Assembly (NCBI GenBank): GCA_026387335.1
Contig: JAPLLX010000004.1
Span: forward strand, 189,485-253,484
Direction: 5' to 3'
DNA: 64,000 bases
DNA from: Candidatus Omnitrophota bacterium
Lineage (GTDB): Bacteria; Omnitrophota; Gorgyraeia; Gygaellales; Profunditerraquicolaceae
The notes beneath the pieces were generated by a model. That model was not told where the DNA came from and made no database searches. It saw only the letters and a program-made list of their open reading frames with translations. This document shows, piece after piece, positions 1 through 19,869 of the stretch (positions within the stretch are counted from its first letter, which is position 1; each line of letters starts with the position of its first letter). The position numbers and the translations under genes are program-made.

Positions 1-3000
1 TTCTATTATATTTAATATTGCCATGTCAAGCGCCTTATTGGCCGAGCTGGAGGAAGATTCTTCTAAAGTTTCTTTAATGGAATTTAATGTCTGAATATAT
101 ATTCCGTCCACCTTCACCGGACTTGTATCTGAATGGAATAACCTTGCAAGCCCTCTATACATTGTCTTGATTGTCTTCTTACTCGCGTCAGGCTCAAGAC
201 CAAGCGCCTTTGATGCTTCAGCCTTTCGGGCTTCTGCTGAGAGCTTAGTTATCCCTAGAAAATCAAACTCCTCTAAATTCTTCTTTATGCGCGCCGTTTC
301 TGCTAATACCTCACTTGCCTGTTTTGTTATAGTAATAACCTCTATACCGTCAATAGTTTCTGTAATAGCTTCTCCGGATGCATACTTAACTAGTCTCCCT
401 TGACTATTATATGTTACATTAACCGAGCTGGAGGCGGCGGGACTGGAAGAAGTCCAGGTAAATTTGATAATTTTCAGCCCTAACGCAACTCTGATATTTT
501 CGATAGTCTCAAGATACTCACCGCCGGCTTGAACAAATATGTCCTGATAAATGCCATTATGGTCTTCTTCGGAAGTATGCTCCTTTAATAAATCCATAAA
601 CTTACCTAAGTATTTCTCTTCGCTTACTTTTTTACCGCGCCTTAATGCCTCGGCCTGGTTCCCGGCCCTTTCAAATATGCCTCTAAATTTATTGTGCTTT
701 TCTTTATGTTCATCCTTAAACACGAGAACTTCATCGGGAGAGACAATAATGCTTTGACGGTTGAGAGTACTGTACAAATCTTCTAAAGAAAGCTCTCCGT
801 TCGAGGTGTGAAAATGCAATAGAATGCTCCCCGGGATATTCTTAATAACAACGCCATCTTCCTCCCCTATAGCCCCAATCTTAAGGTGCCAGCCATCCTT
901 GCCTAAATAACAATAATCAGCGCCTAATTCCAGGTTGCGATTTACCCGGGCAATCTCCATTAAATATTTAACTAACGATTTAAAATCCTTGAAGACTTTA
1001 TCTTCTTTGGTGAATATCGCCGGGTCTGCCTTGCGTAATGCTTCAATAGTAGGCTGGATCCTCTCATGCCTGCCGTGTATGTGATATATGGCAGTAAACG
1101 CACTGATAACAAGCAAAGCGACTACAGTAACAATCTTGAGCCAATAAGTCTTGCTGGACTTTTTAATCGGGCTGGAGAAGACCGGACTGGAGCCAACCGT
1201 AAGGGACGGCTCTCTGACTGAACCGTCCCTGTTCTTAGTTGTGCGTGCCGTTGACTTTGTAGATGGGAACACATCCCCTTGCATCGCTAATCTTGACACG
1301 GATGAGCTCGCTCTTAACGCCGATGATCTCCTCCCAACTATCGGCACGGCCGTTGCGCGTGTAGATAGTTCCCATAACATCGTTAATGAGGAAGATCCTG
1401 AGATGACCGCTGGCGTTCTCACGAGCTGCGGCAAAAGTAGTGTGGTCCTTGGCGAAGTCAACAATGTGATCAATCCTAATATCATCAACATTGATAGGAC
1501 ACATGGTACACCTCCTTCTATTATTGTTGTAATGGCGGCAACAAGAGGGGTCAATCCCTGGAGGAGGGCTCCTGCGCCGCCATTAACAACAACATAGGCC
1601 GCAAGCTCTCCTGCCACGGAAAAAGCTAACGGCCGGGTTAAATTTATAAGATTATTTATATCGGAATTTGTAAAGGATAAGACGAGTAATAAGGAAATAA
1701 CTACTGCGGAATTGAGCAGTATAGCTATTAAGGCTGCACAAGGCGGAGAAAGCCCGTTGTAACCTTTGGCGTGATTACTGACTGGTTTGACGAATCTAGC
1801 TTCTAATAATCTTAATGAGGGAGTTTCGGTTCTATAATGCCCCTGTCCTCTAAGCTCATTTGAATAGCTCTTAAGCGACGAGCGGCTAATTCTTCCCTCA
1901 AATACTCTGATTCGATCCTTTTCATTTCTTCCTGAAATTTCAACATTAGGTTTCCCATTTTTCCCTCCTCCAATTATGACCCTGTACATTTGAATCAAGA
2001 AGTTGCTCACAGATGCAGCAATGCGGGCTAATGGAGGAGCGAGGGAAAGATTGGTGACGCCTACGCCGGTTTCTTTCGGCTGGGCTGTTATTGAAGCTTC
2101 TAACCTGAAATAGCTGCGGCCTTTTTCAAGGATATTCCTTAATGTGCCTAAGAATGAAGTGGTGACTAATTTGTTAATAGGCGAGCTGGATACTGTTACA
2201 GTTTCTATGGGTATGTTGGCAGAGACTGGTAATTCCCTGACCGGAGAAGAACCGCCATTTGCTTTACCAGGATTAATTTGATTGGCAAAGTTCGTTGCTT
2301 CAGATGTAATCTTTGAAGAACATCCAGCTATCTTAACCTCAATTTCGTATAATTTGTTATTCAACTCAAGGGCTTGCTTAATAAGAGCTGCTTTGGATTC
2401 TTCAGAGATTACTGCATTAGTTAATTGATCCTTAACCTCAAGGGAATACTTAATAAGTATGCCTTCAACTTTCTGATATGTGGCGAGCGCCTTAAAATAT
2501 TCTTCAGCGTCATATTCACTATTCCCTAAGATAAGTAAATCGTTAGCGGTAGAGAAAAGATCTTTGCTTGCTGTTGCATTCACAGGATCTTGTTTATTTT
2601 CTGCGGTTACTTCAGCCTGAACCCCTGCGTTATCTTTTGCAGAAACATGGCCTTTTTCATCCACTATCTTCTCATCTTTAATTCCTTCTACATTAGCCTT
2701 ATCCGCAGCTTCCGGAGTTTTCTTGGCATCCTCTGTAACTTTCTTCGTAACTGTTTCTTTTGCTAATCTATCTCTCTCTTCGGCTGCTTTACGTTCAGCT
2801 TCTTGCTGAGTAGCGAGTTTGGCTGCTTCTTCAGCTGCTTTGCGTACTTTTTCTGCCCTATGATTAAGATAAATCTTAACTGCTATGAGGCCGAGAATAA
2901 TAATTGCCACAATAGCAATAGCCCAGATCATCTTGGGGTTGGTAGTAAAATAGTCTAAAATTTTGCTTAAAATTGATTCTTCGCCTTTAGGGGCTTGGGG

Positions 3001-6000
3001 CGCAGGAGGAACGCCAGGAACTGTTAATATCTTAGAAACATCAATCTGCTGGCCGGCATTAATGTGATCCATCGCGCTATAGGACTGATTTGCGCCTTTA
3101 ACCTGTCTCCAAGTTTCAATTGCCCGGCCTTTTTCACCCCATAATTTCATGCCTGATTTGCCAAAATACTCTAATACTATATGGCCCCAGGTATCGCCTT
3201 TTCCTACGGTAAGAATATTATTCGCTGCGGTAGCGGCAAATGACTGGATAGGAAGAACTAGAGAGACAAATAGGAAAATTCCGGCTGTAAGATATGCGTT
3301 GCTTATATTAGAAAGGATGTTTTTAATATTTACTGCAGAGCTCGAGCTAAGAATAACTGTTGGAGGAGCAAGGCCACTGACTCTCTTTCTATCTTCACTA
3401 ATAATATTCAACCAATCTACTATTCCGTAAGCTTCGCTTGCTCCATTTGTGAGGTTAAAATTCGCAGCTTCCGGCCCTTCACCAAAGCCACCCTTACCTT
3501 TACCTGTACCTTTTGGACCAGCAGCTGCTCCGCCATTACCTGCCGCAGCACCAGTTCCAGTTCCACCCTGCGCTGATCCGCCGCCGCTGGAACCATTTAG
3601 CTCTTGAATATAACCAATGACACCAGAAACCTCATCCATTTCTTCTTTCTTAATTTCTCTAATATCTTTGTCATCTAAATTATTTTCTTTCTTATAATTT
3701 TCTACTGCAGAAACGTTGTTCCAATGAATTATGCTCACAATTTTTCCATTGTAAAGAGCTACGCTTTCTATAGAAACCGGTCTTGTCTCGGTAACTTCTC
3801 CTTTATTATTATATTCTGTAACCATCAAATCTCCATTGGCGTATTTCCCTCTAACAAGAAAAGCATGTCCACTTTGAACAACTATAAGATTCAAGTTACC
3901 CAGGGTATTAGAATCCATAGACTCTATAATCTTTGGAGATAATAAATAATACTGCAATCTACCTTTTGCAATCTGGTTTAATTCGTTCAATAATAAACCT
4001 CTTCCTAGCTTTCTTTCCGCCTCTTCTATTTCTGCTGCCAATACAGAATCTACGGTATAAAAACTTCCAGGTAAACAATCGGCTGGTTGAATACCTCTCT
4101 TTCCTTCTGCTATTCTCAAACGGCCATCAAAACCTTGAATAATACCTTCTACTGCGCGAAGAACGCTTTTATCTCCGTCATCGATTGCTTTCCTTAAATT
4201 TACAATTTCCTCCCCCTGGTCATTTACCTTAGTACTTAATCCCCTTACTTCTTCTTTTACTACACCTTGCATCTTAGAGAAAAATCCTGCTAACTCTTCT
4301 TTCGCTTTCTTATGAGTTCTTTCATTATTCTCTTCTAGTTCTTGTATTTCCTTGCGCACAATCTTCTGCACTGCTGCTACTATATTCCCGTTTGCAATTC
4401 CATTAAATAATTCGCGGATTATTTCTTCCGACAGGCCTTCTTGTAATTCCGGATGTAACTGCGCGGTTTTCACATAATTAGCAATAATACTTAAACCTAT
4501 TACGTATCTATTCGTTATATCTTCATCAGTAATGCTGTTCACTGTTGTATCCTCGAAATATGAATCATTAAACCATCTCATTAATACTGCTTTCAAGTGT
4601 GGGATATTATCTTCTACGTTCATAATTCCCTTAACCGCTGACCTTATTAAGCCATACATTTCACTTCTCGCTTTTTCAAAGTCGCGATCCTGTATTGCTC
4701 TAAGAACCGTGCCATAGGCGGTTGGGTCTTTTTGCCTTAAACCTTCCAGCATCATACGGTCATCCTTGTTATTGCGGAAATAATCCTGGCCTAACAAGCG
4801 ATTTAATAACTTAATTGCTTTTTCTAAATCTGTTATTGTACTATTATTTGCGGGAGAAGATGAGGTTTTGGTGGGAATTCCAGAGACAAAAACGCCGCTA
4901 TTGAGCGGACTTGAGGTTGCACGAATCGAACCACTGGTTTCTTTATTTGCACTCTGGGAACCTGCCAAACTCTTAAATTCATTTGCTTCAATTACGCCTA
5001 ATTTATACGCTCTGATGTCCTTGACACCAACAAACTTTGAGTCAGAGTTCGTCGGTGAGCTGGCAGGCGGCGCAACGCCGGTTCCGGTTCCAACAACTGG
5101 ATTAGGAGTAGCAATCGTATTGAATTGTATGACTTTACCGGCATAGAGTAGGCTTGCCGGGCTTAAATCTAAGGCTGTTAAGGCTCTGGTAACCGAACTG
5201 GAAGCGCCTACACCGCTAACCACAGTTCCAGCCACTGGCAAAGGCATTGGTGACCGCCTTTCTAAAGGCGAAGTAGTCTGATCTGGCTTCTGTCCACCCA
5301 ACATTCTTGCTACAGCCCCAAATAATCTATTTACAATCTTACCTATATACTCTAATGCCGCGCCGGTTTCTGCAATCGACGAAGAGACAATCCTTGCGCC
5401 GGTTAAAGCGCTCAATGCGCCGGCTAATATCTGCACTTTGGCATTAGGGCCGCTAATTGAACTTGATCCACCGGTATTATCGTTCACTGCGGCCTTCTCT
5501 TCCACTGGAGCAGCCGTATCCATCTGTTTCTTCATCTTTTCCAATAAATCATTCAGCTTTAAGTCTACTAGTGATTTTTCTTCAGTAACATCAGAATGAA
5601 TCTTGCCCAACAACTCACCTTTCTTAAATAGTTCTGTAATGTCATTTAAAACCTTATCCACTGTCTGCTCTGTCTTTAGAACTTTATTGGCATGCCCGGT
5701 AAATCCACCAAGGGTTGTGGATTCTGTCGCTAATAAATTCTGTCTTTCTGTATCTTCGGCAGAATTTAAAGAATTAATGAGGGCACGCATACTTAAGAAA
5801 CGCGTTAATCCTTCATTAACGCCTAACTCTGAAATGCTAAAGTCTGATTCACTGAGCTCTCTATTTTCAAGGGTGCCCATTTCGGCAAGCAAATTAGCGT
5901 AATTCTGTTGAGCTGTAACAGTGGCTTCCGCATCAATATCCCTACCGTTAGGGCTTAAAATAACGATATTACTGGGATTACTACCAATATTCTTTACGGC

Positions 6001-9000
6001 GATATGGAATGCCTCATGCGCGCCTCTGCCGAAATTATAATGGCCAGCGAGATTCAACCTAATAGAAAGCTTACCTTGGGCATCTTTCGTAATAACAAAA
6101 TTATCTACGCTATCAGCTTTTATTGTGTAATTCTTTTCTCCTACCGAAGGTTCATATACTTGGGCGCTTGTATTCTTAGTTTTATCCGGCCCACGCAAAA
6201 ATCCGGAAGGACCTATTTCAACCTGAACACCTTCATATCCCTTATCCTTGCCGTACCAATTGCTTCCCATTTCTTTTTCTACAGCAGTGCTTCCTTGTGC
6301 CTTAAATTCCTGCTCAGCAATAAAGGTTTGGGCTGGCTGTAATGCCCTAAAAACAAGATAGAGCGAAGCATCGTCAGTTAACCCGTTAAGTATTTTGAGG
6401 GAATTGTCTAAGCGGGCATCATCAGGATTCGCAGATTGAATATTATTAATGAATTCTAAGGCCTGCTGGCGGGTAAACAAGCTTGAACCATTGCCTAAAA
6501 GCCGGCTGGCTATATCCGGGCCTAATAAACGGAAGAATGCATTTTCATGCTCTTGAGGATTGATTAATATATCCTCAAATTTCACATTCTCCTGGCCTTG
6601 GGATGTTCTTTGAGCAACCAAAGCATTTTCAGCATCATTGAACCTTAAGCCGTACTCAAATTGAGGATTAATACCCAACTTTCTAAGCCCTGTATGAATA
6701 TCCTTACTATTAACTAAATTTTTGTTTTTGAGAGTCTCAACGACCAACGCATATTGAACAGTCTTACCTGAAGTACTGTTTAAAAGTTCACGGAAAGCGG
6801 CCGCGACATTTTCTATTTCTTTCGGTGGAAGGCCTAAACGCTGCGCTTCCTGCTGGGGATTATCAACAAAACGTCTTAATACGTCGCGCTTAACAACGCC
6901 CTGAGTCTGCATAAATGTATTCATTAAATCTGCTGCCTGACGGGTTGCCGCGTTTGTAGAGGTGGCAAATAACTGTCCGCGGGCCAAAGGATCAGAATTC
7001 AAGAATAAGTAGTCGGCTATGCTTAATCTCCCTAAAACCTTAGAAGATATCCCTGAAAGATTCAATTGCCTATAAGCTTCAACCTGTGTAGGCCCAAGCG
7101 GTAAAACTAACGGCATTAAATCTATTAAAGACTGCGTTTTGCCCATAGCCACAGCTACCTGCTGAAGGCCGCCCATGGTCCGCTTGTCTTTAAATATACT
7201 GCTATGGCGCTGGGCATTAAATTTAATCAACGCGCTTTCCAAAGAGCTATTGCCTTTTTGCAGATTGCGTGTTAAGAATTCTACGGGATTATCCAAGCCA
7301 AGCTGTAATCTCTCCACCTCTGTGGGTGTAAAAGCTGTGCCGGCTAATTTATCCGCAGCAAGCGAAGTTAATGTAGCAACTCTTACTATAGAATCTACCC
7401 CGCGATAAGGATTAGAAACATCAATATAACCTCTCTGGGCTAAATTTACAGCAAGATCGAATGATTGTTCAGGGGTGATCAATATGTCGGCTTCCGGCAA
7501 TGCTAATTCCGGTAAACCAATGCGATTTAAGAATACATTCACTTCTTTGCGTTCTCTTTCATCCCAAAGCTGCACTGTTTGCATAGCGAGATTAAGACCG
7601 CCTCTTCCAACCATATACCCGCCGCGCACAAACAAGGCTTGTGTCTCAGCAGGAAGATTATTGAACTTTTCCGCTAAAGCAGGCTGCCCCTTGGCAAAAT
7701 TCTCAAAAGTCACAGGGCCAAGTTCTTCGCTGGGTACGGCGGAAGGAACCCCTCTCTTTTCTCCGCGAACAGTAACTCCATACTCCATGTTAGCCGACGT
7801 AAATTTAGGATAATCCTTTCCTGTAAATTCTTTTGCAAAAATAGCTCTAACCTGTTCGGGAGTCAATTGTTTATAGGCTGGTTTACCCTCATATTCATTT
7901 TTTAACTCTGCGCGTAAGGCTTTTTCTATCTTTGAATACGCATCGCGAAAAAGAATAAATTCATCAACAATAGCCTTGGCTTTCATTTCCTGCGCAGTCT
8001 TTGGTTTTTCAGGATACAGTTCCCTTAAATCTCCCTGCCCCCATTGATCACGCAGGAATTTCATACCATGATCTCTTTCGGTATCCAAATGCTCAACAGT
8101 CAAATCTGCCTGTCCGCGGACATTTTGTAACTGGCGCACAGAATCATTGCCTTGTTCTAATCTATTTACTTGGGCAATTTTCTCCATTGCCTTTGGCCCA
8201 AGCAAAGAGCCAAGCAATAAATTAATCTTGAATTTCGCGTCCCTGATTAAATCTCTTTCTTTATGAAGAAGATCTTGTTTATCCGCCTGGTCTTGATTTT
8301 TACCAAAAAGCTTTTCTAATTCTTTTACGCCTTCCAGGCTCTTAACATCTACACCGCTTAAGTCGCGAACAATAAGAACACGGTCAACTGAATCAAAATC
8401 AGAACCGGAAACAGGCCTTAACCTGCGAGAACCCTGAAAAATCGGCAAAAGCTCGCTCTTGGAATCAGCAATAGCAACTAATACAGCCTTATCGGAAACG
8501 CCGTTTATATCAATACCGTATGTATTAGGACGGGATATTAATACTTTAACACCCTTTCCGGACGCAATTTGTTCTGTTACATATTCAATCGGGCTATTGT
8601 TTCTGCCGCTATTTTTAATTACTTCTGAAACTGGCTTTGCGTCCTTTAATTCTCTACCGACTTCTACCATTTGCCAAATTCCGCGCTGATCAAGAATAAA
8701 ACGGGTGTTATCTTTATAAAACGCGCTAAAATCTCCTATGGAAAGCTGAGAATCACCATGCTGCTCGCTCTTCTGCGTATCTACATAGATAGTTACATCT
8801 TTACCTTTATTAGATGTCTCTTTGCTGCCTAACTCAAAAATTGCGTTATTATTAACGTTATTCACCCCGACTACATTTAAATTTGCATCAAGGATTGGCT
8901 TACTCACTTCACCTACTGAATCCATGCCAAAAACTATTCTCATCGTATCCTTCTGCCGATCGGTCATTGCTCCGGCAAAAAGTACAGTAGCTACCGCGCC

Positions 9001-12000: not shown

Positions 12001-15000
12001 CGTATATGGATTTGCTAATAAATTTATAGCGGCTTTCCCTGCTTGACTCTCAACTCCAAATCTTGCGGCTAAACGCGAACCTAAAGAAGGGGCAATTTCT
12101 TTTGCTGTAGCTACTACACCTCTCCCTAAAGAACCTACTGGATAACCCAACATAGCCCAGAATAATGCATCCTTTGCCAGATCTCCCCCGGATGCCTGTA
12201 TCTCGCCGTTAAGCAACTGGTCTCTTTGTTTAATAAGGTTATCGGCTTTCTCCCATAAACGGTTTCTCCAATAATTTGGTTCTGCCCCTAGCCATTCATT
12301 CGGTTTATCTATAAGATAAGCTAAAGGCGCGCCTAATATATCTATCATTGCAGCATACCCGCTGGAGCCCGCTTTAAGATAATTCTTAATTTTACCCTCA
12401 GAGGTATCCTCTAGGGGAATTGAAATTCCGGCAATACTAAGCTTACCTTTAAATTCTTCTCCTTCAATGGCTTTATTGAGATTGTTGATAGCGGTATTTA
12501 ATTTTTCTCCATTCACACCGGGATCAAACCTGGAATCGCCTGTATCATTATGAATTTTTGTGATTCGTTGTAGCACTGCGCTTCTTTGCGCGTCACTATG
12601 CTGTTGATAAATATCCGCTACCCATTTTTCAAAACCTGCAAAATTAGAAGGTAAGGTAGCTATTTTACCCGAACGATAATCATCAACCCATTGATTCCAA
12701 CCCAATTTTTTAGCATTTTCTTGATAATACTCAGAATAGGATGTAGTATTTTCTTTGTCTGTTTTATTTAAAGCGTCAACGCGGGTTAATAATTCGGCTT
12801 TCTTAATAACTGCCTTTTGTTCATCATTAAGCTTACCCTTAACATAAACTTCTTCAGTTAATCCTGCTTTTTCAGCTTCTGCTTTATTAAACCCCTTAAG
12901 CTGGCTGATATCGTAAAACCCAATTTTCTTAGAATAAGTGCGCATATACTCAGCCAGGCCTGTTTTGCTGTTCAAATCAGCTATATCTGATTTAATTTCA
13001 TCTTCTGTTGCCCATCCTTTATTTACCAGGTCTTGCATAAAGGCTATCCTTACTTTATCATCCTGGGGACGAGCCTTAAAATTAAGGAAGGCGTCAATTG
13101 CAATCGCGCTATTCAAAAGTTTGCTTGTGCCATTAAAATCTTCTTTATCAAGCGATTTCCGCGCTTTCTCTAAAAGGCCTTTAATTTTTTCGTCTTTTTT
13201 AGTCTCGTTTGATTTTTCTAATTCCTTCAGCGGCTTCTCTAAATTCTCCCTCATTTCCTTCTTTGTAACAAATTTCTCTTTGCCATCCTCCTTCGTAAAA
13301 TAAACTTCTTCACTAGTCTTTAACGAATAGTTCTTTTGGCTCATCTCATTCTTAGAAGGCTGGCCGTTAGGAAAATCAATCGTTCCCGAAGCCTTAGTGG
13401 ATTGAAGATAAGTTATACTGGCTACTCCTTTTTTCTCATCCGTGCTTAAAGACCAGGGCATCTTAAATCCCTTAGGAGCGGCATAAGCTAAACCTTCAGC
13501 CTGAGTAATAACCTTGTATTGCACATCGCCGTTAATACCCACGCCCAACATTACCGGAACGGAACTCTCTTCAGAAGGAAGAATAACTGCCCCTAATCTA
13601 TCTTTGACTTTTACCACCTGGGTTTCGCCTTTTTCGCCCAAGACAAAATATTTATCTTTATTCAGCGCGGCATCGGTTTTCTGACCCCAAATGCCATCTG
13701 TTTTTACTTTTAAGTCCGCCTGTAATTTCTCTACCGCTGTTTTATACAGCGGATCTTTATCGCCTTTTATAACAGCGGCTTTATCTAAATAACCTTTCTC
13801 CTTTAAAATACCTACCTTATCCTTAAAGGCTTTATCAGCTGTTGACCCTTCCATACCTTCATTCATAAACGGCAAGGCCTTAATTAAAAGAGCTGGGCGC
13901 GCTATGCCGTCTTCCTTATTCACCAGCAGCTCTTGGCCGATAATCGGCGATGTGCCTACCCCTGCTTTTCCTCCGTCTTTCACATTAGTCAAAGCCCAGA
14001 TAACTTGATGCCTGTCCTGCAATTCAGAATCAAATAAAATCTTATCTTTCGGAGTAACCCAATTCCATACGCCGGCCTTATCCTTTTCCTGAACCGCGTA
14101 ATTAGCGAAAGATGAAACGATATGCAGAACGCCGGCTTTGCTGCCTACTCCATTAATAATAATTCTATCTTTATTCTTGGTATCTATTTTGCTACCCGGC
14201 TCAGAATCTTTCAGGTAAGGTTTGGCGAGAAAAGTTTCGGTGAGTTGGCCAACGCCTTCAATTTCACCATTTGCCTTAAAGGAAATCTCCGCCTCTTTTT
14301 GATTATAGTTAGCGCCTATCCAATGAAGGTTTACATGGCTAATCTTGCCGTCCGGGCCTAAATTTATTGCCACATTACGAAGCAGACTCATACCATCAGG
14401 GAAATCTAAACCCGCGACTATAACTCTCCCCTTAGAAACATCTACATTATCGTAAATGACTACTTTACTTGCAGGGTCAATAAGGTTATATTTCTTGGTT
14501 TTTTGGTCTTGCACTAATTTATAAACGCCTTCATATGTCTCCACAGTCTTATCTTTATTAATCTCATAGGATTTGGAGGTCCTGGCGCCGCTATACTTTA
14601 TCCCCTGCGCTTCGGTAACCAGGTCAAATTTAAATTTATCCTCCTTATCAAAATCCATACCCGTCAATATTCCGCTTTTACTAAAATATACCGGGCCGGT
14701 TGGATTTTGCTGATAACGTTCATGATCTATTTCATAAGTAAAGTCTCTGGATAATTTAGGGAGAGACTCGGAATTATTTTGAACTCTTAGTTCGTTTTTA
14801 CTGTCATCCCAGGGAACAGAAATAATATCTTTTCCCGCCTGATCCTTAGCCACAGTTACTTTAACCTTTTTCTCCTTATCATTATCATTAATAAGGTAGC
14901 TCTCTTTTACTCCGTCTTTAGTTGATTCTTGTAATTTCCAACCTTCTAGAGGACCATTTTTCTCATATAAAGAAGCGCTATTCTCAAGGCCACGGGATAG

Positions 15001-18000
15001 TGAAGGATTAACTGCGCCGGAAAAAACTAAAGGAGCTGGACCGCCCCAATGCTGGATAGGCCTGATATTAAATTCTTTGCTCGTTGCAGCGTCTGTTCCC
15101 TTGAACGCTAACTGGCCGACTAAAGGTGAGTTGCCTTTTAAAACTACTTCGGAGGTATCTTTACCTGTTTGCCTGGCTACTTCCCAATCAAGACTATGCC
15201 CCTTTTGCACAGCATTCCCAAAGATTACCTCATCGGGAATTTCATTTCCGATTCTATACGCAGCCCAAGAACTTATAATATAGCTAACGCCGTTACTGAG
15301 AAACTCTTTAAGTTTTTCGGCTGAGTTTATATTCTTGATTTCCCCTATTAGTTTAGCCTGAAGCCGGGAGTCTTTTATCTTCCCGCCTTTTGCATCAGTA
15401 AACTCTCCTTTTTCTGCTGCTTCTATTAATACAGTCTTACCTGTTTCAAAATCTTTGTCTATCTTCTTTATTAACTCCGGGTTAAAGTATAATCTTTCTG
15501 TTATTTTCTCCTTGAGATATGTTTCCGAAAGCGTACTATCATTTACGCCAATTGTAAGAATACCTTTATTCTCTTTGTCGCCTCCCGGCCTTATGCCTAA
15601 AGAATTAAAAGTAATGCTTCCGTCTTTATGCACAGAGTAAGAAGTAACCAGGCGCGTATTCCTATCTCCTTCTGCAATCGGAGTATTATCGCCTTTTGAG
15701 TTATCTCGGACCATCTCAAATCCGTTTTCTCCCGACCATTTTGCTCCTTTGGCAAAATTAAGGCTGCTTAAATCCAACCCTACAATATTACCATTCTGGT
15801 GATCAATGTTGGCCACCCAGCCGCCAAAACCCCTGGCAGTAGTCATGGGTATTTTGTTAGAATCTTGAAAAGAACCTGCTCTTGTTAACGCTACCATATC
15901 AGTCTGCGGAGATTCTTTCCCCTCGCCGCCGGCTTTGGGCGTTGGTATAATTAAGTCTCCGTTTACAAGCAAAACAGGGTTGCCGCCAAACTCACCTAAG
16001 TCATAAATAGTGCCTTTTGTCTTTGCAACTATTGATTTATTATCAAACAGTGCGCTGAGAACGTCTTGCTTAGGGACTGGAGTCATAAGAGATTCGCCAC
16101 CTAGTTTACTTTCTAGAAAGTTATCAGCAGGCTTAGAAGACATAATTTCCTGTCTATAACGCTGCTCATATTCTCCCCGGGCATAAGAAAGCTTGGCATC
16201 AAAAGTCTGCTTGCCAAGCACATCAAAGGTGTATAGATAATCTAACTGTCTTAATGTAAGGTCGTTCTCAACGCCGTTTACATCTTTAATTTTTTCAAAC
16301 TTCTTGGTGTCGCCGGGATTAATTATTTCTTTTATAAAAGCTCCGTCGCCGTAAAAATTACCGTCGCCAATGGTAATCTCTCCGGATTGTTCTTTTCGAT
16401 GTCCCAGATACGTGCTGCTATCAAAACGCACGCCCGTATATTTGTCGGCGTAATAAGCCTGGCCTTTTATATTGTCTTTACCCCTAATTGCAAATTCCGG
16501 CACTTTCCATTGAGCGCCCTTGGCATAGTTTAAAGAATTAGGATCTAAACTTAACTGGCCGTCTTTATTATGCACCAAAACCCCTACGGTCCCGGTCATC
16601 TTGTTAACTTCGGCTGACGCGGATTCAACATTCACTACCACACCAGACCCAGGCCCATAAAGGCTCTTAGCATAATCTAAGAATGGCGATCCTGCGTTCT
16701 TTACAACCCAAGTTAACCACTTTTCTGTTTCAGTTGCTTCAACACCCGCCGCCGGCCCAGAATTTTGTAGAGATGTTTTAAATTTTTTGGCCCTATCAAG
16801 ATAATCAGCAGCAGGATAGCTATCTTCCGACAGCTTTTTATTTCCTGCTTGATCTCGGGGTTTAGAATTGGCATTAGTATTATAAGCACTAGTCTCTGGA
16901 AGCAGCAGCTTTAAGCTAACGCTCTCATCGATATTAGAGCTAATGGATATATTCTTCTTTATGAAATCCTTATTTGCTTGTGAGTCATATTTATTAGAAA
17001 GCGGGTTACCGTTAAATTCACTGCGATACCCTGAAACATACTCCACAATATCCTTTTCGTTAAAATATTGATATAAGCCTGTATCTCCCCATAAAACTGC
17101 CGGAACCATCTTGATGTTAATAGTAGAAGTAATGCCTGATTCCTTAGCCTTGATTACCGTAGGAAAGAAGGTCGGATAGATTATGTCCCTGCCTAAGCCG
17201 ACCAGGTTATTTACTGAGGCAAAATGCAAGGTAGACTTGGCGTAATTAACTAAAGAATAAGAGGCGGAAGGTAAAAGCGAGCTGAGGTTCCCATCATCAA
17301 TGAACTTACCCCAGTCAGTATAACCTTTTTGTTTCATTAAATAATCGGCATTGGCTTTGAAATCAGAGGTTCCGGCAAGCTGGGCAATCTTTTCTATATA
17401 TTGAATTTCAGACCAGCCGCCTGCGCCTTTGGTGTATACCGGAGAGGTGCCGCCTAAAGAAACATAATTGGTGGCGAATTCTTCAAATCGCTTATTAAAT
17501 AATCTTCCTGCATACCCTGCCCAAGATTTTTCGCCTAATTCTGCAGTTGATTTATTCGCAGCGATAATTGTGCCGGCTGCAGAATAAAGAGTGGCTGTTC
17601 CTAACCAGTTAACCCCCTCCATTTGTAATCGGGTCAGGCCCCATTTATTCTTATCTGTAACTTTATCAAAATCTCCGCCTAAAGCATTCAGCCCGGCTGA
17701 AACGCCGCCGGATAGAAGGCCGTTAAAAGCCGCTTGATCCCAAGTCAGTTTGTTGGCATTTGCTCCGGCTATGCCTCCTAAGGGCTCGCCTAATAAACGG
17801 CTATAATTAGGATGTTTCTTAAGCTCGCTGCCAAACACTCCCTGAGAAGCAGCATATTCAACAGCCAAACCTACGCCCTGAGAGATTAAAGAACCTTTCA
17901 TATCCTGTAGGGCATATAGAGCGCCCTGATAAGCTGTCGAAGGAGCCACGTAGGCGGAAGATTTTCCTCCTTCTTGAATAATATTTCCGGATATATTCTT

Positions 18001-19551
18001 TGTCACATCCATACCACCATCTCTGTAACTACCAAACGCGTAATAATGCGTCTCCGTCTTTATATTACTAATATCGTCAGGCCCGTTTTCATCTATTAAT
18101 GTTGCTACTTCTCTCGGTGTTACTTCAGTCTTGGCTTGATGTCCCATATCGAAAACAGTGCCAGAGGCAGCACCCATTGCGATGCCAAACGCTTCATAAC
18201 CTATAACGTTCCCGGCGAGATTAGCAAACTGCCGGCCAACATAAGGATTATTCTTAAATAAACTGGTATCTTTCAGCGCCTCATAGGCAAATACGCTGGC
18301 GCCGGCTTTGGCAGCGCCTAAAAGTGTTCCTCTTAAGGCACCCATCCCAATTGTAGAAAGAGTACTGTTTGGCTGGTAATAAGCAGTGGTTGCTCCGGAT
18401 AAGGCGGCGATTGTCACAGTACTTAATATTCCGGCGGAAGTAGGATCCATCCCGAAGTTCTGCACTGCTACGTTAGTCGCTGCCTGGGCAATTTGGCTAT
18501 AGAGCATTGCCTGGCCAAAAGAAGTAACTCCTTTACTTAATGCCTCGCCAGCACTAAGAGCAGATGCTGTTCCGGCTACTGAGAAATAGGAGTAGGCGGC
18601 TGGTATGGCGACAGAAGCAACCGTAATCCCTAACCCCAGCCACATATCCCCGTCAGAAGGTTCTTTAAATAAAGCAGAGACATCGGCATAGCCTTGCTTG
18701 TTGGATCTGGCGCCTAAGACTTGTTTGGCTTCGGCATCAGTCAAAGGGACAGTCCCCTGCGGGGACAGTCCCTGTATTAAGGCATAACCGGAAAAATCTT
18801 TAAGGAATTTCTCTATTGGCAGGAATTCTTCTTTATGTTCATCTAAGAAGTAAATTTTTTCACCGCTAATTTTAGTGATTAAAACATAGTGGTCGCCGTT
18901 TAGGTGAGCAATGAAAGGAGTTAAATCTGCGGATAACTCGGATAACTTAACCGGGTAAAGTTTAAGGCCGAAAAACTCTGAAGCTTTGGATAAGGCGTAA
19001 AGGGAATTTTTAATAACTTTGGGATTACCTTCCGGCTTGACTACGTCATTTAAGATATCTATGGTTAAGGCAAAAACCGCGATATCCTGCTCTTCTACCT
19101 TAACCCCTTTATAGCTTAAGTAGTCATAAAGCGACTTGGTACCGCATGGTTTACACACCAGCCAGTTAAACAACTCATCTATCCTCTGATTGGACATTTT
19201 CAGTGGTTTATCCAGGGTTATGGTCAGATTCTCTGAAACTTTTATAGCAGTTATGGGTTTATTGGCTATATCTTTGAGGATACTTTTTACTGCCTGAGGA
19301 ATGTTAAGATTTTGGACATTTTTAAGGTAATTTGGGGCAAATACGTTGTTGGAAGGAAGGCCAATAGCGGGTTTATTCCAGATTACGCGCCAGTCATATT
19401 CTACTGCCTGAGCTGCCTGTTCAGGCAAGAAGACTACGGCAACAACAAAAGCTGCCACGCGGATCCAAGGCTTAAAACTGGAGTGGAACTTTTCCTTGGC
19501 CGCTTCTTTGGTAACTGCCTTGTCTTCTATATTGGCTCTTGGCTTTATCAT
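1..19551 (-). CDS. Giant multi-domain membrane/surface protein, 5' part of the gene in window (start ATG about 19549-19551; ORF continues past position 1; at least 6,516 aa in window). Domains seen: N-terminal signal anchor + C39-like Cys peptidase, multi-TM Gly/Ala block, P-loop kinase-like domain, second papain-like segment, Gly-rich linker, LysM between TM helices, K/E-rich charged region, further TM helices
   Basis: Manual reverse-complement translation in the phase whose + triplets start at positions congruent to 1 mod 3. No TTA/CTA/TCA (minus-strand stops) were found across lines 1-1620 or in spot checks at 7.0, 9.7-10.2, 12.0, 15.0, 17.5 and 18.7-19.55 kb, while in-frame + strand TAA/TGA/TAG are frequent, the signature of antisense. 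The ORF track lists no minus ORF of 60 aa or more between 1505 and 19551, consistent with one ORF lacking an in-window stop. N-terminus reads MIKPRANIEDKAVTKEAAKEKFHSSFKPWIRVAAFVVAVVFLPEQAAQA... then ...NWLVCKPCGTKSLYDYLSYKGV...TPFIAHLNGDHYVLITKISGEKIYFLDE (C39-like Cys/His pattern). Confidence 0.85.
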   Translation of the reverse strand, partial: MIKPRANIEDKAVTKEAAKEKFHSSFKPWIRVAAFVVAVVFLPEQAAQAVEYDWRVIWNKPAIGLPSNNVFAPNYLKNVQNLNIPQAVKSILKDIANKPITAIKVSENLTITLDKPLKMSNQRIDELFNWLVCKPCGTKSLYDYLSYKGVKVEEQDIAVFALTIDILNDVVKPEGNPKVIKNSLYALSKASEFFGLKLYPVKLSELSADLTPFIAHLNGDHYVLITKISGEKIYFLDEHKEEFLPIEKFLKDFSGYALIQGLSPQGTVPLTDAEAKQVLGARSNKQGYADVSALFKEPSDGDMWLGLGITVASVAIPAAYSYFSVAGTASALSAGEALSKGVTSFGQAMLYSQIAQAATNVAVQNFGMDPTSAGILSTVTIAALSGATTAYYQPNSTLSTIGMGALRGTLLGAAKAGASVFAYEALKDTSLFKNNPYVGRQFANLAGNVIGYEAFGIAMGAASGTVFDMGHQAKTEVTPREVATLIDENGPDDISNIKTETHYYAFGSYRDGGMDVTKNISGNIIQEGGKSSAYVAPSTAYQGALYALQDMKGSLISQGVGLAVEYAASQGVFGSELKKHPNYSRLLGEPLGGIAGANANKLTWDQAAFNGLLSGGVSAGLNALGGDFDKVTDKNKWGLTRLQMEGVNWLGTATLYSAAGTIIAANKSTAELGEKSWAGYAGRLFNKRFEEFATNYVSLGGTSPVYTKGAGGWSEIQYIEKIAQLAGTSDFKANADYLMKQKGYTDWGKFIDDGNLSSLLPSASYSLVNYAKSTLHFASVNNLVGLGRDIIYPTFFPTVIKAKESGITSTINIKMVPAVLWGDTGLYQYFNEKDIVEYVSGYRSEFNGNPLSNKYDSQANKDFIKKNISISSNIDESVSLKLLLPETSAYNTNANSKPRDQAGNKKLSEDSYPAADYLDRAKKFKTSLQNSGPAAGVEATETEKWLTWVVKNAGSPFLDYAKSLYGPGSGVVVNVESASAEVNKMTGTVGVLVHNKDGQLSLDPNSLNYAKGAQWKVPEFAIRGKDNIKGQAYYADKYTGVRFDSSTYLGHRKEQSGEITIGDGNFYGDGAFIKEIINPGDTKKFEKIKDVNGVENDLTLRQLDYLYTFDVLGKQTFDAKLSYARGEYEQRYRQEIMSSKPADNFLESKLGGESLMTPVPKQDVLSALFDNKSIVAKTKGTIYDLGEFGGNPVLLVNGDLIIPTPKAGGEGKESPQTDMVALTRAGSFQDSNKIPMTTARGFGGWVANIDHQNGNIVGLDLSSLNFAKGAKWSGENGFEMVRDNSKGDNTPIAEGDRNTRLVTSYSVHKDGSITFNSLGIRPGGDKENKGILTIGVNDSTLSETYLKEKITERLYFNPELIKKIDKDFETGKTVLIEAAEKGEFTDAKGGKIKDSRLQAKLIGEIKNINSAEKLKEFLSNGVSYIISSWAAYRIGNEIPDEVIFGNAVQKGHSLDWEVARQTGKDTSEVVLKGNSPLVGQLAFKGTDAATSKEFNIRPIQHWGGPAPLVFSGAVNPSLSRGLENSASLYEKNGPLEGWKLQESTKDGVKESYLINDNDKEKKVKVTVAKDQAGKDIISVPWDDSKNELRVQNNSESLPKLSRDFTYEIDHERYQQNPTGPVYFSKSGILTGMDFDKEDKFKFDLVTEAQGIKYSGARTSKSYEINKDKTVETYEGVYKLVQDQKTKKYNLIDPASKVVIYDNVDVSKGRVIVAGLDFPDGMSLLRNVAINLGPDGKISHVNLHWIGANYNQKEAEISFKANGEIEGVGQLTETFLAKPYLKDSEPGSKIDTKNKDRIIINGVGSKAGVLHIVSSFANYAVQEKDKAGVWNWVTPKDKILFDSELQDRHQVIWALTNVKDGGKAGVGTSPIIGQELLVNKEDGIARPALLIKALPFMNEGMEGSTADKAFKDKVGILKEKGYLDKAAVIKGDKDPLYKTAVEKLQADLKVKTDGIWGQKTDAALNKDKYFVLGEKGETQVVKVKDRLGAVILPSEESSVPVMLGVGINGDVQYKVITQAEGLAYAAPKGFKMPWSLSTDEKKGVASITYLQSTKASGTIDFPNGQPSKNEMSQKNYSLKTSEEVYFTKEDGKEKFVTKKEMRENLEKPLKELEKSNETKKDEKIKGLLEKARKSLDKEDFNGTSKLLNSAIAIDAFLNFKARPQDDKVRIAFMQDLVNKGWATEDEIKSDIADLNSKTGLAEYMRTYSKKIGFYDISQLKGFNKAEAEKAGLTEEVYVKGKLNDEQKAVIKKAELLTRVDALNKTDKENTTSYSEYYQENAKKLGWNQWVDDYRSGKIATLPSNFAGFEKWVADIYQQHSDAQRSAVLQRITKIHNDTGDSRFDPGVNGEKLNTAINNLNKAIEGEEFKGKLSIAGISIPLEDTSEGKIKNYLKAGSSGYAAMIDILGAPLAYLIDKPNEWLGAEPNYWRNRLWEKADNLIKQRDQLLNGEIQASGGDLAKDALFWAMLGYPVGSLGRGVVATAKEIAPSLGSRLAARFGVESQAGKAAINLLANPYTISEVVTLVVPNVVSLCTTGEFLPRETNALLAIAGLATPVASKVLSSLIVEGATLASPFLAKVGYAMGTQAPLWGQINLTTAVIGNLVGLNETGTARALSFGEGLGIYGEGLRDGAAFGLALTGAGALVANGGIIKNTINNLSTALRINTESSIVRYGTSFALGAVSLPLLSTGLKTMSGEGYLLDNIQSSYTWVNVLTGGLIGLGIKGLPAATPAGLNLARAEYGAITGAGIKLTHDSLDAYRSGNNYTFGQAVASVFGGAAIGTLAASYLGTTKNIFSPTSRAGYMAERDFSLQALYSVPTKLFNSSVRGALTWLYVSPSFTVSGALWRGALVNMEHAIDGKPSVPWFAIEKRDASNNIVKGEYVDLFSSKQGQTELLSSFVYGPRSGVWMAPAIGILQTRASEKLSISENAALSIQKPFSNETLNHAWSLGVFMPGVVTGLKESVNYFGNTGKYSLASLSNLIDGNGLTPKDRAVFSTPESEFIQWAGFFRVPAAAPVMSKNERSIFGGITEMLTKRGRATIISPEEAKSNVRPDWMKPGASERIIPVDKAAEVTATGKIDSLIVGQVAYAKEGSKVFYRDGFLGRRVNSFEVTPEIKRAAETRIKSDYYNVAADPVINIYGGVKDKDQANMLEKMVLGARYVAGSVKPLVLSIFAPPSAGKSTAGIIAELGLIQNGTYGPKAKMLVVVEQSDTHADQVYDKTMGDVRRAAEKGNAFAKSIVDADRIVRWRVKDSDQPAINFADKSAVIVSEHDLQYLMGLREMPREQLSAHDKALTELLDKAVLTNTDYLDNPSLQISDGFDKISKEEFDSQKALVERAHKFLTETLNGELSLKSLDDKYEITRSRDKDGETIVDPAGNDALIEAFLRYSAGEKLEQERLDLDALRKTPEGERLVAALKASMVARAEVTGLDKLTAFDAERNKWVIIPLNPSGRAHDLRVANSLQAIADVVIHNARVRDTSRPENVEIPLNYEQVEIQGAGHAMVSFAKMLDTAEKMGAVATVLFAGAMTDRQKDTMRIVFGMDSVGEVSKPILDANLNVVGVNNVNNNAIFELGSKETSNKGKDVTIYVDTQKSEQHGDSQLSIGDFSAFYKDNTRFILDQRGIWQMVEVGRELKDAKPVSEVIKNSGRNNSPIEYVTEQIASGKGVKVLISRPNTYGIDINGVSDKAVLVAIADSKSELLPIFQGSRRLRPVSGSDFDSVDRVLIVRDLSGVDVKSLEGVKELEKLFGKNQDQADKQDLLHKERDLIRDAKFKINLLLGSLLGPKAMEKIAQVNRLEQGNDSVRQLQNVRGQADLTVEHLDTERDHGMKFLRDQWGQGDLRELYPEKPKTAQEMKAKAIVDEFILFRDAYSKIEKALRAELKNEYEGKPAYKQLTPEQVRAIFAKEFTGKDYPKFTSANMEYGVTVRGEKRGVPSAVPSEELGPVTFENFAKGQPALAEKFNNLPAETQALFVRGGYMVGRGGLNLAMQTVQLWDERERKEVNVFLNRIGLPELALPEADILITPEQSFDLAVNLAQRGYIDVSNPYRGVDSIVRVATLTSLAADKLAGTAFTPTEVERLQLGLDNPVEFLTRNLQKGNSSLESALIKFNAQRHSSIFKDKRTMGGLQQVAVAMGKTQSLIDLMPLVLPLGPTQVEAYRQLNLSGISSKVLGRLSIADYLFLNSDPLARGQLFATSTNAATRQAADLMNTFMQTQGVVKRDVLRRFVDNPQQEAQRLGLPPKEIENVAAAFRELLNSTSGKTVQYALVVETLKNKNLVNSKDIHTGLRKLGINPQFEYGLRFNDAENALVAQRTSQGQENVKFEDILINPQEHENAFFRLLGPDIASRLLGNGSSLFTRQQALEFINNIQSANPDDARLDNSLKILNGLTDDASLYLVFRALQPAQTFIAEQEFKAQGSTAVEKEMGSNWYGKDKGYEGVQVEIGPSGFLRGPDKTKNTSAQVYEPSVGEKNYTIKADSVDNFVITKDAQGKLSIRLNLAGHYNFGRGAHEAFHIAVKNIGSNPSNIVILSPNGRDIDAEATVTAQQNYANLLAEMGTLENRELSESDFSISELGVNEGLTRFLSMRALINSLNSAEDTERQNLLATESTTLGGFTGHANKVLKTEQTVDKVLNDITELFKKGELLGKIHSDVTEEKSLVDLKLNDLLEKMKKQMDTAAPVEEKAAVNDNTGGSSSISGPNAKVQILAGALSALTGARIVSSSIAETGAALEYIGKIVNRLFGAVARMLGGQKPDQTTSPLERRSPMPLPVAGTVVSGVGASSSVTRALTALDLSPASLLYAGKVIQFNTIATPNPVVGTGTGVAPPASSPTNSDSKFVGVKDIRAYKLGVIEANEFKSLAGSQSANKETSGSIRATSSPLNSGVFVSGIPTKTSSSPANNSTITDLEKAIKLLNRLLGQDYFRNNKDDRMMLEGLRQKDPTAYGTVLRAIQDRDFEKARSEMYGLIRSAVKGIMNVEDNIPHLKAVLMRWFNDSYFEDTTVNSITDEDITNRYVIGLSIIANYVKTAQLHPELQEGLSEEIIRELFNGIANGNIVAAVQKIVRKEIQELEENNERTHKKAKEELAGFFSKMQGVVKEEVRGLSTKVNDQGEEIVNLRKAIDDGDKSVLRAVEGIIQGFDGRLRIAEGKRGIQPADCLPGSFYTVDSVLAAEIEEAERKLGRGLLLNELNQIAKGRLQYYLLSPKIIESMDSNTLGNLNLIVVQSGHAFLVRGKYANGDLMVTEYNNKGEVTETRPVSIESVALYNGKIVSIIHWNNVSAVENYKKENNLDDKDIREIKKEEMDEVSGVIGYIQELNGSSGGGSAQGGTGTGAAAGNGGAAAGPKGTGKGKGGFGEGPEAANFNLTNGASEAYGIVDWLNIISEDRKRVSGLAPPTVILSSSSAVNIKNILSNISNAYLTAGIFLFVSLVLPIQSFAATAANNILTVGKGDTWGHIVLEYFGKSGMKLWGEKGRAIETWRQVKGANQSYSAMDHINAGQQIDVSKILTVPGVPPAPQAPKGEESILSKILDYFTTNPKMIWAIAIVAIIILGLIAVKIYLNHRAEKVRKAAEEAAKLATQQEAERKAAEERDRLAKETVTKKVTEDAKKTPEAADKANVEGIKDEKIVDEKGHVSAKDNAGVQAEVTAENKQDPVNATASKDLFSTANDLLILGNSEYDAEEYFKALATYQKVEGILIKYSLEVKDQLTNAVISEESKAALIKQALELNNKLYEIEVKIAGCSSKITSEATNFANQINPGKANGGSSPVRELPVSANIPIETVTVSSSPINKLVTTSFLGTLRNILEKGRSYFRLEASITAQPKETGVGVTNLSLAPPLARIAASVSNFLIQMYRVIIGGGKNGKPNVEISGRNEKDRIRVFEGRISRSSLKSYSNELRGQGHYRTETPSLRLLEARFVKPVSNHAKGYNGLSPPCAALIAILLNSAVVISLLLVLSFTNSDINNLINLTRPLAFSVAGELAAYVVVNGGAGALLQGLTPLVAAITTIIEGGVPCVLSMLMILGLITLLTSPRTTLLLPQLVRTPAVISGSSSLTMLWELSTRATAVPIVGRRSSALRASSSVSRLAMQGDVFPSTKSTARTTKNRDGSVREPSLTVGSSPVFSSPIKKSSKTYWLKIVTVVALLVISAFTAIYHIHGRHERIQPTIEALRKADPAIFTKEDKVFKDFKSLVKYLMEIARVNRNLELGADYCYLGKDGWHLKIGAIGEEDGVVIKNIPGSILLHFHTSNGELSLEDLYSTLNRQSIIVSPDEVLVFKDEHKEKHNKFRGIFERAGNQAEALRRGKKVSEEKYLGKFMDLLKEHTSEEDHNGIYQDIFVQAGGEYLETIENIRVALGLKIIKFTWTSSSPAASSSVNVTYNSQGRLVKYASGEAITETIDGIEVITITKQASEVLAETARIKKNLEEFDFLGITKLSAEARKAEASKALGLEPDASKKTIKTMYRGLARLFHSDTSPVKVDGIYIQTLNSIKETLEESSSSSANKALDMAILNIIE

Positions 19552-19715
19552 TTTATTTTTATATTACTATATACATAAAATGCAAAATAAAAGTTCCCCT
19601 TTACCCCATTACTCTTTTTAGCTTGCGAGTGAGAGTCTTTCATATTTTGTTTTATAAAGCGTTTGTAAAATCCCTTACTAAGCTTCTAAAAAGAAAAACC
19701 GAACTGTCAAATTTC

Positions 19716-19825
19716 CGTCGGTAATTCGGCAGCCCGGCTATCCTTTGATAGGCACTATTTTTGTTTCTTTGGGACCCGCGGCTTTGCGCCCCCGGATTTC
19801 TCCGGGTTTGCCATTTCGTTACTTA
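19716..19825 (-). ncRNA. c-di-GMP-I (GEMM-I) riboswitch aptamer in the 5' leader of the giant gene
   Basis: Minus-strand sequence ...AAAUGGCAAACC-CGGA-GAAA-UCCG-GGGGCGCAAAGCC-GCGGGUCCC...GGAUAGCCGGGCUGCCGAAUUACCGACGG matches the hallmark GEMM-I elements as I recall them from V. cholerae Vc2: GGCAAACC, a P1b hairpin with GAAA tetraloop, GGGACGCAAAGCC, and the 3' ...GUUACCGAUGG closing segment. A U-rich tract (UUUUUCUUUUU, + coords about 19690-19705) follows as a possible expression platform. Confidence 0.7.
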
Positions 19826-19841: not shown

Positions 19842-19869
19842 AGTATAACACATAGCTCGTCGCTGTCAA
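19842..19869 (-). promoter_or_regulatory. Sigma70-type promoter for the giant gene and riboswitch (-35 TTGACA, 16-nt spacer, -10 TATACT)
   Basis: Minus-strand read: TTGACAgcgacgagctatgtgtTATACT. + strand tgtcaa at 19864-19869 and agtata at 19842-19847. Predicted TSS about 19834, immediately upstream of the riboswitch. Confidence 0.55.

Follow-up and report, generated by a model that had tools for sequence, protein, structure and literature searches.

The first 19,551 nucleotides (nt) of a 64,000-nt stretch of a Candidatus Omnitrophota genome (contig JAPLLX010000004.1, positions 189,485–253,484; hereafter the window, to which all coordinates refer) read on the minus strand as one open reading frame (ORF) that runs off the window. 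We propose, with a probability of roughly 80%, that this ORF is a giant gene of the C39 family that is gated by a riboswitch, that its product is a mosaic protein of the cell envelope, and that two small genes, orf49 and orf89, are nested in other frames of a linker cassette through which the giant frame is read. The giant ORF alone would be one more member of a catalogued family and not news. The riboswitch-terminator leader and the nested dual-coding cassette, on the other hand, seem to be undescribed as far as we have searched the literature, and both seem well supported by comparison with related loci.

The giant frame is open and coding throughout the window

The stop-free run on the minus strand covers window positions 1–19563 (6,521 codons) and its earliest ATG lies at 19551–19549, leaving 6,517 codons without a stop within the window. 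This bears out an initial annotation of this DNA, made from the sequence alone, which had described a minus-strand frame free of stops from an ATG at about 19549 to position 1. From the base composition, ~6% of random minus-strand codons would be stops, so that a chance origin is excluded (probability roughly e^-400). The longest ORF in any other frame of positions 1–19600 has at most 148 amino acids (aa). Codon usage was scored per 150-codon block, the table being derived from the remaining long ORFs in the window, and favours the giant frame in all blocks but aa 6001–6150. When the N-terminal 2,146 aa were compared with the related loci L001 and L002, third-position mismatches were never outnumbered in any scored 40-codon window. 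Past aa 784 the giant ORF diverges even from its closest relatives. An alternative genetic code is irrelevant here, the frame being open under the standard bacterial code.

The N-termini of the homologues follow the pattern MxKPxxxT(E/D)DRV...F(K/H)SSFKxWIRV, with which the giant ORF agrees residue for residue. For this reason we take the ATG at 19551 to be the right start. Window 1516..1 is matched with 100% identity by a public contig, L083, which adds another 1,981 nt in which the frame is open throughout. Extended in this way, as the initial annotation had suggested, the frame comprises at least 7,177 codons and no stop is reached. The gene thus runs off the window at its 3′ end and it is the C-terminus that is missing, not sequence further upstream as had been stated. 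A receiver domain lies in the giant frame ~800 codons past the cassette (E = 5e-19). As no internal DNA repeats of note were found in the gene, it is not a repeat-scaffold giant. Taken together, these results show that the 19.5 kb are the 5′ part of a genuine chromosomal giant gene of Candidatus Omnitrophota, and that the frame is coding throughout the window.

A predicted riboswitch and terminator precede the giant gene

Upstream of the ATG and on the same strand we found a sigma-70-like promoter sequence, a match to the cyclic di-guanosine monophosphate (c-di-GMP)-I-GGC riboswitch family and a terminator hairpin (Table 1). Folding predicts that the 3′ side of the aptamer, GCCGGGCUGCCGAAUU, is able to pair instead with AAUUUGACAGUUCGG, which is followed by a U-run. 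In most loci the aptamer is followed by this competing hairpin and a U-run, and compensatory changes are seen when the loci are compared. As the terminator competes with the aptamer for its 3′ side, we infer that the riboswitch is a transcriptional ON switch, which would gate a very expensive gene. The initial annotation does not include this leader.

The element is conserved across the family. An Rfam scan found it directly upstream of the gene in 16 of 19 homologous loci, and a covariance model (R1) was built from these matches. Seventy loci had enough upstream sequence to be assessed with this model; 61 of them (~87%) have a match at most 600 nt upstream, and three more have one 1.3–3.5 kb upstream. 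In the alignment of 70 aptamer sequences, 98.6% of cells were paired and compensatory changes were seen in 11 of 19 pairs. At most 1 in 500 shuffles reached the observed value on any measure, with the alignment having been fitted to the model. The aptamers carry the variant UGCC (58 of 70) or the canonical UACC (9 of 70), mostly upstream of orthologous genes, which suggests that both bind the same or a very similar ligand. Extra, mostly weaker matches to the riboswitch model were seen 7–10 kb upstream of the giant gene in four loci (L022:70-209, L009:228-388, L046:8-153 and L011:1434-1578), where they presumably control other genes.

According to the proposed mechanism, transcription would start at the sigma-70-like promoter and then meet the riboswitch, the 3′ half of whose aptamer could alternatively serve as 5′ arm of an intrinsic terminator. 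Binding of the ligand, for which c-di-GMP or a close cyclic dinucleotide is the most likely candidate, would prevent termination and allow the polymerase to enter the giant gene. A riboswitch is mentioned in neither preprint on the giant genes of this phylum (West-Roberts et al., 2023; Nielsen and Lui, 2026), and a full-text search for literature pairing riboswitch with Omnitrophota or Omnitrophica returned one unrelated study only.

Two small genes are nested in other frames of the giant gene

The block with the poor codon score led to a cassette at window ~1200–1975, ~5,860 codons into the giant ORF. Compared with L077, mismatches in this region fall at giant-frame codon position 1 (aa 5871–5910) and position 2 (aa 6001–6123) and not at position 3, because two small ORFs, orf49 and orf89, occupy other frames. 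The initial annotation had considered all other frames closed; two of them in fact hold real genes. Across the whole 19.5 kb, orf49 and orf89 are the only places where a Shine-Dalgarno site and a start codon are combined with a long ORF after them, and the Shine-Dalgarno site, ATG and stop of both are kept in all cassette loci.

Among six loci, orf49 is 70–100% identical, and orf89 is 82–98% identical in four relatives and 34% in one. The giant frame is ~50% identical over the same DNA. Read in its own frame, orf89 shows 36 synonymous and 10 non-synonymous changes, compared to 0 and 47 in the giant frame. For orf49 the corresponding counts are 19 and 17 when it is read in its own frame, and 1 and 36 when the giant frame is read. 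We also simulated synonymous recoding of the small genes on the basis of the codon usage of the window. At most 0.1% of the orf89 recodings and 1–10% of those of orf49 leave the giant frame open, and it is open across the overlap in every cassette locus (7 independent loci). These patterns show purifying selection on the orf49 and orf89 frames; over the same stretch the giant frame is free to evolve at the amino-acid level and is selected to stay stop-free.

No start codon with a Shine-Dalgarno site is present between the cassette and the next module in this window. Since the openness of the frame is selected, the downstream modules have no start of their own and the receiver domain is in frame, ribosomes probably read through the cassette in the giant frame. 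In the giant protein, the cassette would then be translated into a tolerant linker that can vary freely in sequence, and the small proteins would be made by internal initiation, separately from the giant protein.

Searches with orf89 identified a family of 79 cluster representatives, most of them ~90 aa long and matched over almost their full length, and all 50 aligned members start with Met. AlphaFold predicts the orf89 fold with confidence (predicted local distance difference test, pLDDT, 91.9; predicted template modelling score, pTM, 0.80). All eight inspected instances, including a 37%-identical copy in L084, are nested in a long open frame on the same strand and in the same relative frame. 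The relatives of orf89 are mostly called on very short contigs only, as would be expected if they were masked under a giant ORF on long contigs. For L084 (WOZK01000026.1), the NCBI record shows only tiny antisense ORFs and the 91-aa nested gene over 20 kb; one frame there is open for at least 5,875 codons, and the giant gene seemingly is not annotated in the record.

A programmed -1 frameshift into orf89 was considered and rejected. The frame of orf89 closes 6 codons ahead of its ATG, a slippery heptamer is lacking, the hairpin is on the upstream and not on the downstream side, and every one of the 50 aligned members starts with Met. An Rfam search of the cassette region found nothing. The sections consulted of the two preprints on Omnitrophota giant genes do not mention nested genes. 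A reasonable guess is that the small proteins act as inhibitor, immunity or assembly factor for the neighbouring modules.

The cassette lies at an apparent recombination junction

The ~95 nt between the two small genes are almost invariant in six loci, even where the identity of orf89 is down to 34%. They contain a long predicted RNA hairpin (z-score -5.3, 31 predicted pairs), one pair of which is seen as G-C, U-A and A-U. It is speculation that this stem serves in processing or stabilisation.

Within the cassette the DNA is 93% similar to that of the close relative L080, and this similarity ends at ~1181, ~50 nt past the orf89 stop. The modules downstream of the cassette are here a transmembrane (TM) helix, an orphan domain, a J-like segment, an HExxH motif and a receiver domain. 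Elsewhere they are a Tse3-like muramidase, receiver, GGDEF and GNAT domains, or TPR, a trypsin-like peptidase and a receiver domain. As the downstream sequence is unrelated between relatives, the cassette would be a recombination junction ahead of exchangeable 3′ parts. Receiver and GGDEF (diguanylate cyclase) domains occur in the cassette-bearing giant frames of L077 and L081, the 5′ ends of which were not recovered. If these genes carry the same c-di-GMP-type leader, this hints that feedback would be possible.

The product carries an N-terminal C39 domain and mostly orphan sequence

The giant product begins with a signal anchor or signal peptide, the cleavage site of which is predicted from an A-x-A motif, followed by a C39 cysteine peptidase domain. 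PF03412 matches this domain with 31.7 bits (gathering threshold 22). All 24 family members compared have Cys136 (in PCGTKSL) and His221 (in GDHYVLI), which, judged by motif position, are the putative catalytic pair. The C39 identity is thus backed by Pfam, the invariant Cys/His and the fold. This confirms the N-terminal C39-like peptidase of the initial annotation, and the envelope-directed character that it had suggested for the product holds as well. A Pfam scan of the giant product found no ABC transporter domains. Only 8 cysteines occur in its 6,517 residues, one of them being Cys136.

The remainder is mostly orphan sequence, and an NCBIfam scan of the whole product gave nothing significant. 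A borderline peptidoglycan-binding segment (Table 1) has a counterpart in that the homologue P0009 carries PF01471. Three further domains of the initial annotation could not be upheld. The proposed P-loop kinase-like module comes down to a Walker-A-like motif in a region (aa 3050–3800) with no homologue, Pfam match or PDB sequence match; the second papain-like module gave no signal, neither with an unfiltered family-specific C39 hidden Markov model (HMM; E up to 100) nor with Pfam; and LysM has no HMM support (no Pfam match). The proposed J-like segment does give a weak match, which falls below the Pfam threshold and has HSD in place of HPD (Table 1). As for the multiple distant TM helices, a hydropathy scan yielded ~7 strong candidates. 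Three of these (aa ~5940–6031) fall within the stretch in which selection acts on other frames or on the nucleotide sequence and not on the giant frame, and homologues are less hydrophobic there or have charged residues interrupting the segment. Because this stretch is an unconstrained giant-frame reading, the three helices are not to be trusted.

Ten copies of the motif (S/T/A/G)SSP are present between aa 4830 and 7044 (window 1–5065 plus L083), and none earlier. SSP was found 11 times, against ~1.5 expected, and precedes modules, for example as GTSSPVG-ARILIADD at the start of the receiver domain; SSSP recurs in the giant frames of L080 and L081. The motif may be a linker or a processing site. 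Directly past window position 1 (L083 ~1520–1640), a segment resembling a twin-arginine translocation (Tat) signal and lipobox, RRNFLAWLAIILASPSLTAC, is embedded in the giant frame and is followed by the HExxH motif (VHEGSH). This stretch looks like the start of a formerly separate secreted metalloprotease.

We picture the product as a mosaic polyprotein, exported or anchored via its N-terminus, that would combine C39 and a helical bundle with a segment like those that bind peptidoglycan and with long orphan regions. In the last third, modules split by (S/T/A/G)SSP linkers would form a chain, continuing beyond the window with a lipoprotein-signal-like segment, HExxH and the receiver domain. 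It probably acts at the envelope beside the adjacent Tad/type II secretion-like machinery.

The gene belongs to a described family of Omnitrophota giant genes

Homology searches were run with 1,500-aa pieces of the giant product. For the first 1,500 aa, 39 homologues were found in the database, and almost all of them carry the annotation of a partial C39-domain protein from Candidatus Omnitrophota. We identified 76 homologous loci in GTDB species-representative genomes, of which 71 have a homologous frame that meets no stop before the fetched DNA ends (up to 4,146 codons). Most of these genomes are titled Omnitrophota and 13 are titled 'uncultured Planctomycetales/Planctomycetia' (L009, L013, L015, L021-L023, L028-L030, L047, L051, L054 and L060). 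As the latter records carry the Omnitrophota-type gene and riboswitch, their labels look doubtful.

West-Roberts et al. (2023; bioRxiv 10.1101/2023.11.21.568195) describe full-length Omnitrophota giants with few N-terminal domains except C39 near signal peptides, many TM regions, usually a divergent SecA_DEAD domain, and type II secretion-like genes nearby, and propose self-processing of the polyprotein. Nielsen and Lui (2026; bioRxiv 10.64898/2026.06.07.730766) report a cluster with PF03412 as its sole Pfam domain. Giant proteins of 85,804 aa and, as the upper end in Nielsen and Lui, 147,155 aa are reported in the two preprints, which set the giant-length threshold at > 30,000 aa (West-Roberts) and at least 10,000 aa (Nielsen and Lui).

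The gene in our window lies in an Omnitrophota genome, encodes C39 close to an N-terminal signal and has type II secretion-like genes nearby, and it is a fairly ordinary new member of this C39-type giant-gene family. The initial annotation had rightly noted the resemblance to Omnitrophota giants; its wording, 'similar in spirit', understates a true family membership seen in the 39 homologues and 76 loci. Its statement that the architecture is not that of a characterised family is correct with respect to experiments, and the architecture as such is already described in the preprints. It had also placed the product among the largest bacterial proteins, which does not hold, at least 7,177 aa being modest for a phylum with proteins of the sizes given above. 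The visible length is a lower bound, since the end lies beyond the available sequence, and the cassette-bearing relatives are open for more than 7,013 codons with both ends open. No glycosyltransferase, methyltransferase, glycoside hydrolase, NUDIX, dockerin or TSP3 domain was found in the visible part of the product. We do not file it under the Archaeovorin or Dockerin-type subclass (West-Roberts et al., 2023), because their domains were not detected there.

The Tad/type II secretion-like cluster lies at 22.6–38.1 kb on the strand of the giant gene, with housekeeping genes beyond. A FIST-domain protein and a histidine kinase encoded directly past this cluster on the opposite strand might be a sensory input for the locus. 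Between the OprB gene and the giant-gene promoter, ~770 nt (19870–20634) are apparently non-coding, without a match in Rfam and with several weak promoter-like sites.

Table 1. Positions of the giant gene, its leader, the nested cassette, product domains and neighbouring genes in the window.
Feature	Position	Strand	Details
Sigma-70-like promoter	19842..19869	minus	TTGACA, 16 nt, TG-extended TATACT; 11/12 matches; consensus match only; ~20 nt upstream of riboswitch
c-di-GMP-I-GGC aptamer (Rfam RF03167)	19724..19821	minus	66.9 bits, gathering score 59, full model; 170 nt before ATG
Predicted expression platform (terminator hairpin and U-run)	19688..19738	minus	5′ arm GCCGGGCUGCCGAAUU is the 3′ side of the aptamer
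Giant ORF	1..19551	minus	5′ end at ATG 19551; 3′ end outside window; 6,517 codons in window
N-terminal signal anchor or signal peptide	19402..19476	minus	aa 26–50; ends in conserved EQ(V/A)AQA↓VEYDW
C39 (double-glycine type) cysteine peptidase domain	18688..19284	minus	aa 90–288; Cys136, His221
Bundle of long helices	17152..18651	minus	aa ~300–800; family-conserved, Gly/Ala/Ser-rich; no structural match
PG_binding_1 segment, borderline	13663..13806	minus	aa 1916–1963; 21.6 bits, threshold 23
orf49	1812..1971 (coding 1958..1815)	minus	Shine-Dalgarno site GGAGGAGGG; ATG 1958; 48 codons; stop 1814–1812; +1 frame of giant ORF
Long RNA hairpin	1522..1594	minus	between orf49 and orf89; ends 5 nt before orf89 Shine-Dalgarno site; giant frame reads through
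orf89	1235..1517 (coding 1504..1238)	minus	Shine-Dalgarno site AAGGAGGTG; ATG 1504; 89 codons; stop 1237–1235; -1 frame of giant ORF
8-bp hairpin	1202..1230	minus	AGGGACGG, 13 nt, CCGTCCCT; directly after orf89 stop
J-domain-like segment, weak	61..207	minus	aa 6449–6497; 21.6 bits, threshold 27.8; HSD replaces HPD
Upstream neighbours	20638..38132	minus	OprB porin, Fic, two TadB/C-like, TadE/G-like, CpaE-CpaF-like ATPase, secretin with TonB_C, RcpC/CpaB
Small Fic/DOC-family gene	21839–22255	minus	between Tad cluster and OprB porin gene
FIST-domain protein and histidine kinase	39516–42241	plus	opposite strand, directly past Tad cluster

Alternative explanations

The long frame could instead be a string of former or current separate cistrons that share a frame, with the cassette being a gene boundary and the downstream part being made from its own internal start. 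The cassette does resemble an intergenic region with small genes, and what follows it varies between relatives and opens with segments that resemble a signal or a TM helix. In L077 the sequence after the cassette starts with M-D-R-R-G-F-L-K, like a separate Tat-signal protein, and another Tat/lipobox-like segment lies further on inside the frame in our locus. The lack of purifying selection on the giant-frame amino acids in the overlap would fit as well, and internal in-frame initiation downstream of the cassette is possible. What speaks against separate cistrons is that the giant frame is stop-free in 7 of 7 independent loci although synonymous recoding of orf89 closes it in at least 99.9% of cases; a selected openness is only sensible with read-through. 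Moreover, no ATG, GTG or TTG with a Shine-Dalgarno site is found between the cassette and the next TM helix in this window, and the same frame is open for 7,013 codons in L080 and L081. We consider it unlikely that the frame is such a string of cistrons.

It is more improbable still that orf49 and orf89 are untranslated and owe their conservation to a constraint at the RNA or DNA level, for example a structured element inside the giant gene that serves processing, recombination or regulation. Such a constraint would account for the near-invariant 95-nt hairpin stretch, which shows no wobble pattern in any frame, and for the position of the cassette at the apparent recombination junction. However, the changed codons of orf89, 36 of 46 being synonymous in their own frame and 0 of 47 in the giant frame, are unlike RNA structure. 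The conserved Shine-Dalgarno site, ATG and stop, the size of the family with Met in 50 of 50 aligned members, the pLDDT of orf89 and the 34–37% identical homologue that retains the arrangement likewise point to translated genes. An assembly artefact, be it a chimera made of several genes or a region that was collapsed or wrongly joined, hardly comes into consideration. The metagenomic origin of the sequence and the sharp differences in architecture between relatives speak for it. Yet the independently assembled contig L083 is identical over 1,516 nt and continues the frame, the homologous ORFs of the 71 other genomes mentioned above are also open to the end of the fetched sequence, and the gene has uniform codon usage and no internal DNA repeats to mislead an assembler.

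Apart from the start in L077 and the possible internal initiation, several points weigh against a riboswitch-gated giant gene with a read-through cassette. That the gene is transcribed, that termination is relieved, and that the full-length protein and the nested genes are translated is in each case predicted from sequence. We know of no established ligand for the GGC variant. The nested cassette is known from only 7 independent loci, as none of the 76 N-terminal loci extends that far, and orf89 had no confident structural or family match in our searches. The TM calls rest on a hydropathy scan only. Pfam and NCBIfam gave no match to a SecA_DEAD or preprotein-binding domain in the visible 7,177 aa, and such a domain could sit further downstream. 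Contact with a host or prey is a proposed role that builds on proposals in the literature and on the gene neighbourhood.

Implications and comparison with known systems

We know of no report on when the giant genes of Omnitrophota are expressed. The conserved leader gives a concrete, testable answer to this, namely control by a cyclic dinucleotide, and as a short RNA it is open to in vitro assay without culturing the organism. It also supplies a biological context for the GGC riboswitch variant. Well-supported same-strand dual coding is rare in bacteria. The nested genes are supported by substitution patterns, stop avoidance, the 79-representative family and a confident predicted fold, and annotation pipelines miss such genes in giant ORFs.

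More generally, we lean slightly towards the view that Omnitrophota giant genes are composite expression units, in which a cyclic-dinucleotide riboswitch licenses the message, small genes reside in alternative frames of the linkers and are made by internal initiation, and the giant frame stays stop-free only to let ribosomes continue into exchangeable modules. The orf89 family would be one case of this, always in the -1 frame and preceded by the near-invariant long hairpin as a possible processing site. If this is true, a class of small proteins encoded within the largest bacterial genes is systematically hidden by standard gene callers, and a defined regulon can be assigned to the orphan GGC variant of the riboswitch.

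The leader resembles the known c-di-GMP-I (GEMM-I) and GGC riboswitches (RF01051, RF03167) in its score above threshold, its covarying helices and its terminator overlapping the 3′ side of the aptamer. As in many GEMM examples, the controlled downstream gene codes for a large envelope protein. It differs from canonical c-di-GMP-I riboswitches by the UGCC variant of the binding site (58/70 aptamers) and by a regulated gene that is tens of kilobases long.

The cassette shares two frames with selection on both readings with overlapping genes of bacteria and viruses (Pseudomonas aeruginosa, PMC8850804) and with designed insertions (bioRxiv 10.1101/2024.11.07.622342). In contrast to known overprinting, it is the small embedded genes that bear the amino-acid constraint here, the host gene being constrained only against stops, and the arrangement recurs in the same relative frame down to 34–37% identity. 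By analogy, the cassette may be regarded as a natural version of gene insertion into a tolerant linker.

The Omnitrophota C39 giants agree with our gene in phylum, the N-terminal C39 near a signal peptide, candidate TM segments, mostly orphan sequence and type II secretion-like neighbours, and differ in length, 7,177 aa being visible here compared to the published thresholds of 10,000 or 30,000 aa. The C39 domains of bacteriocin and RTX ABC exporters (PCAT1, ComA, LahT and the C39-like domain of HlyB) belong to ABC transporters, whereas the C39 of the giant is not fused to one and follows a signal anchor near the N-terminus of a very large protein. Polymorphic toxins (contact-dependent inhibition, CDI, and Rhs systems), with their conserved body, junction, variable C-terminus and small cognate gene, offer an analogy only, as the structural similarity is too weak to serve as evidence. 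No toxin domain or known junction motif was identified in the giant gene, and its small genes lie inside the large ORF and not after it.

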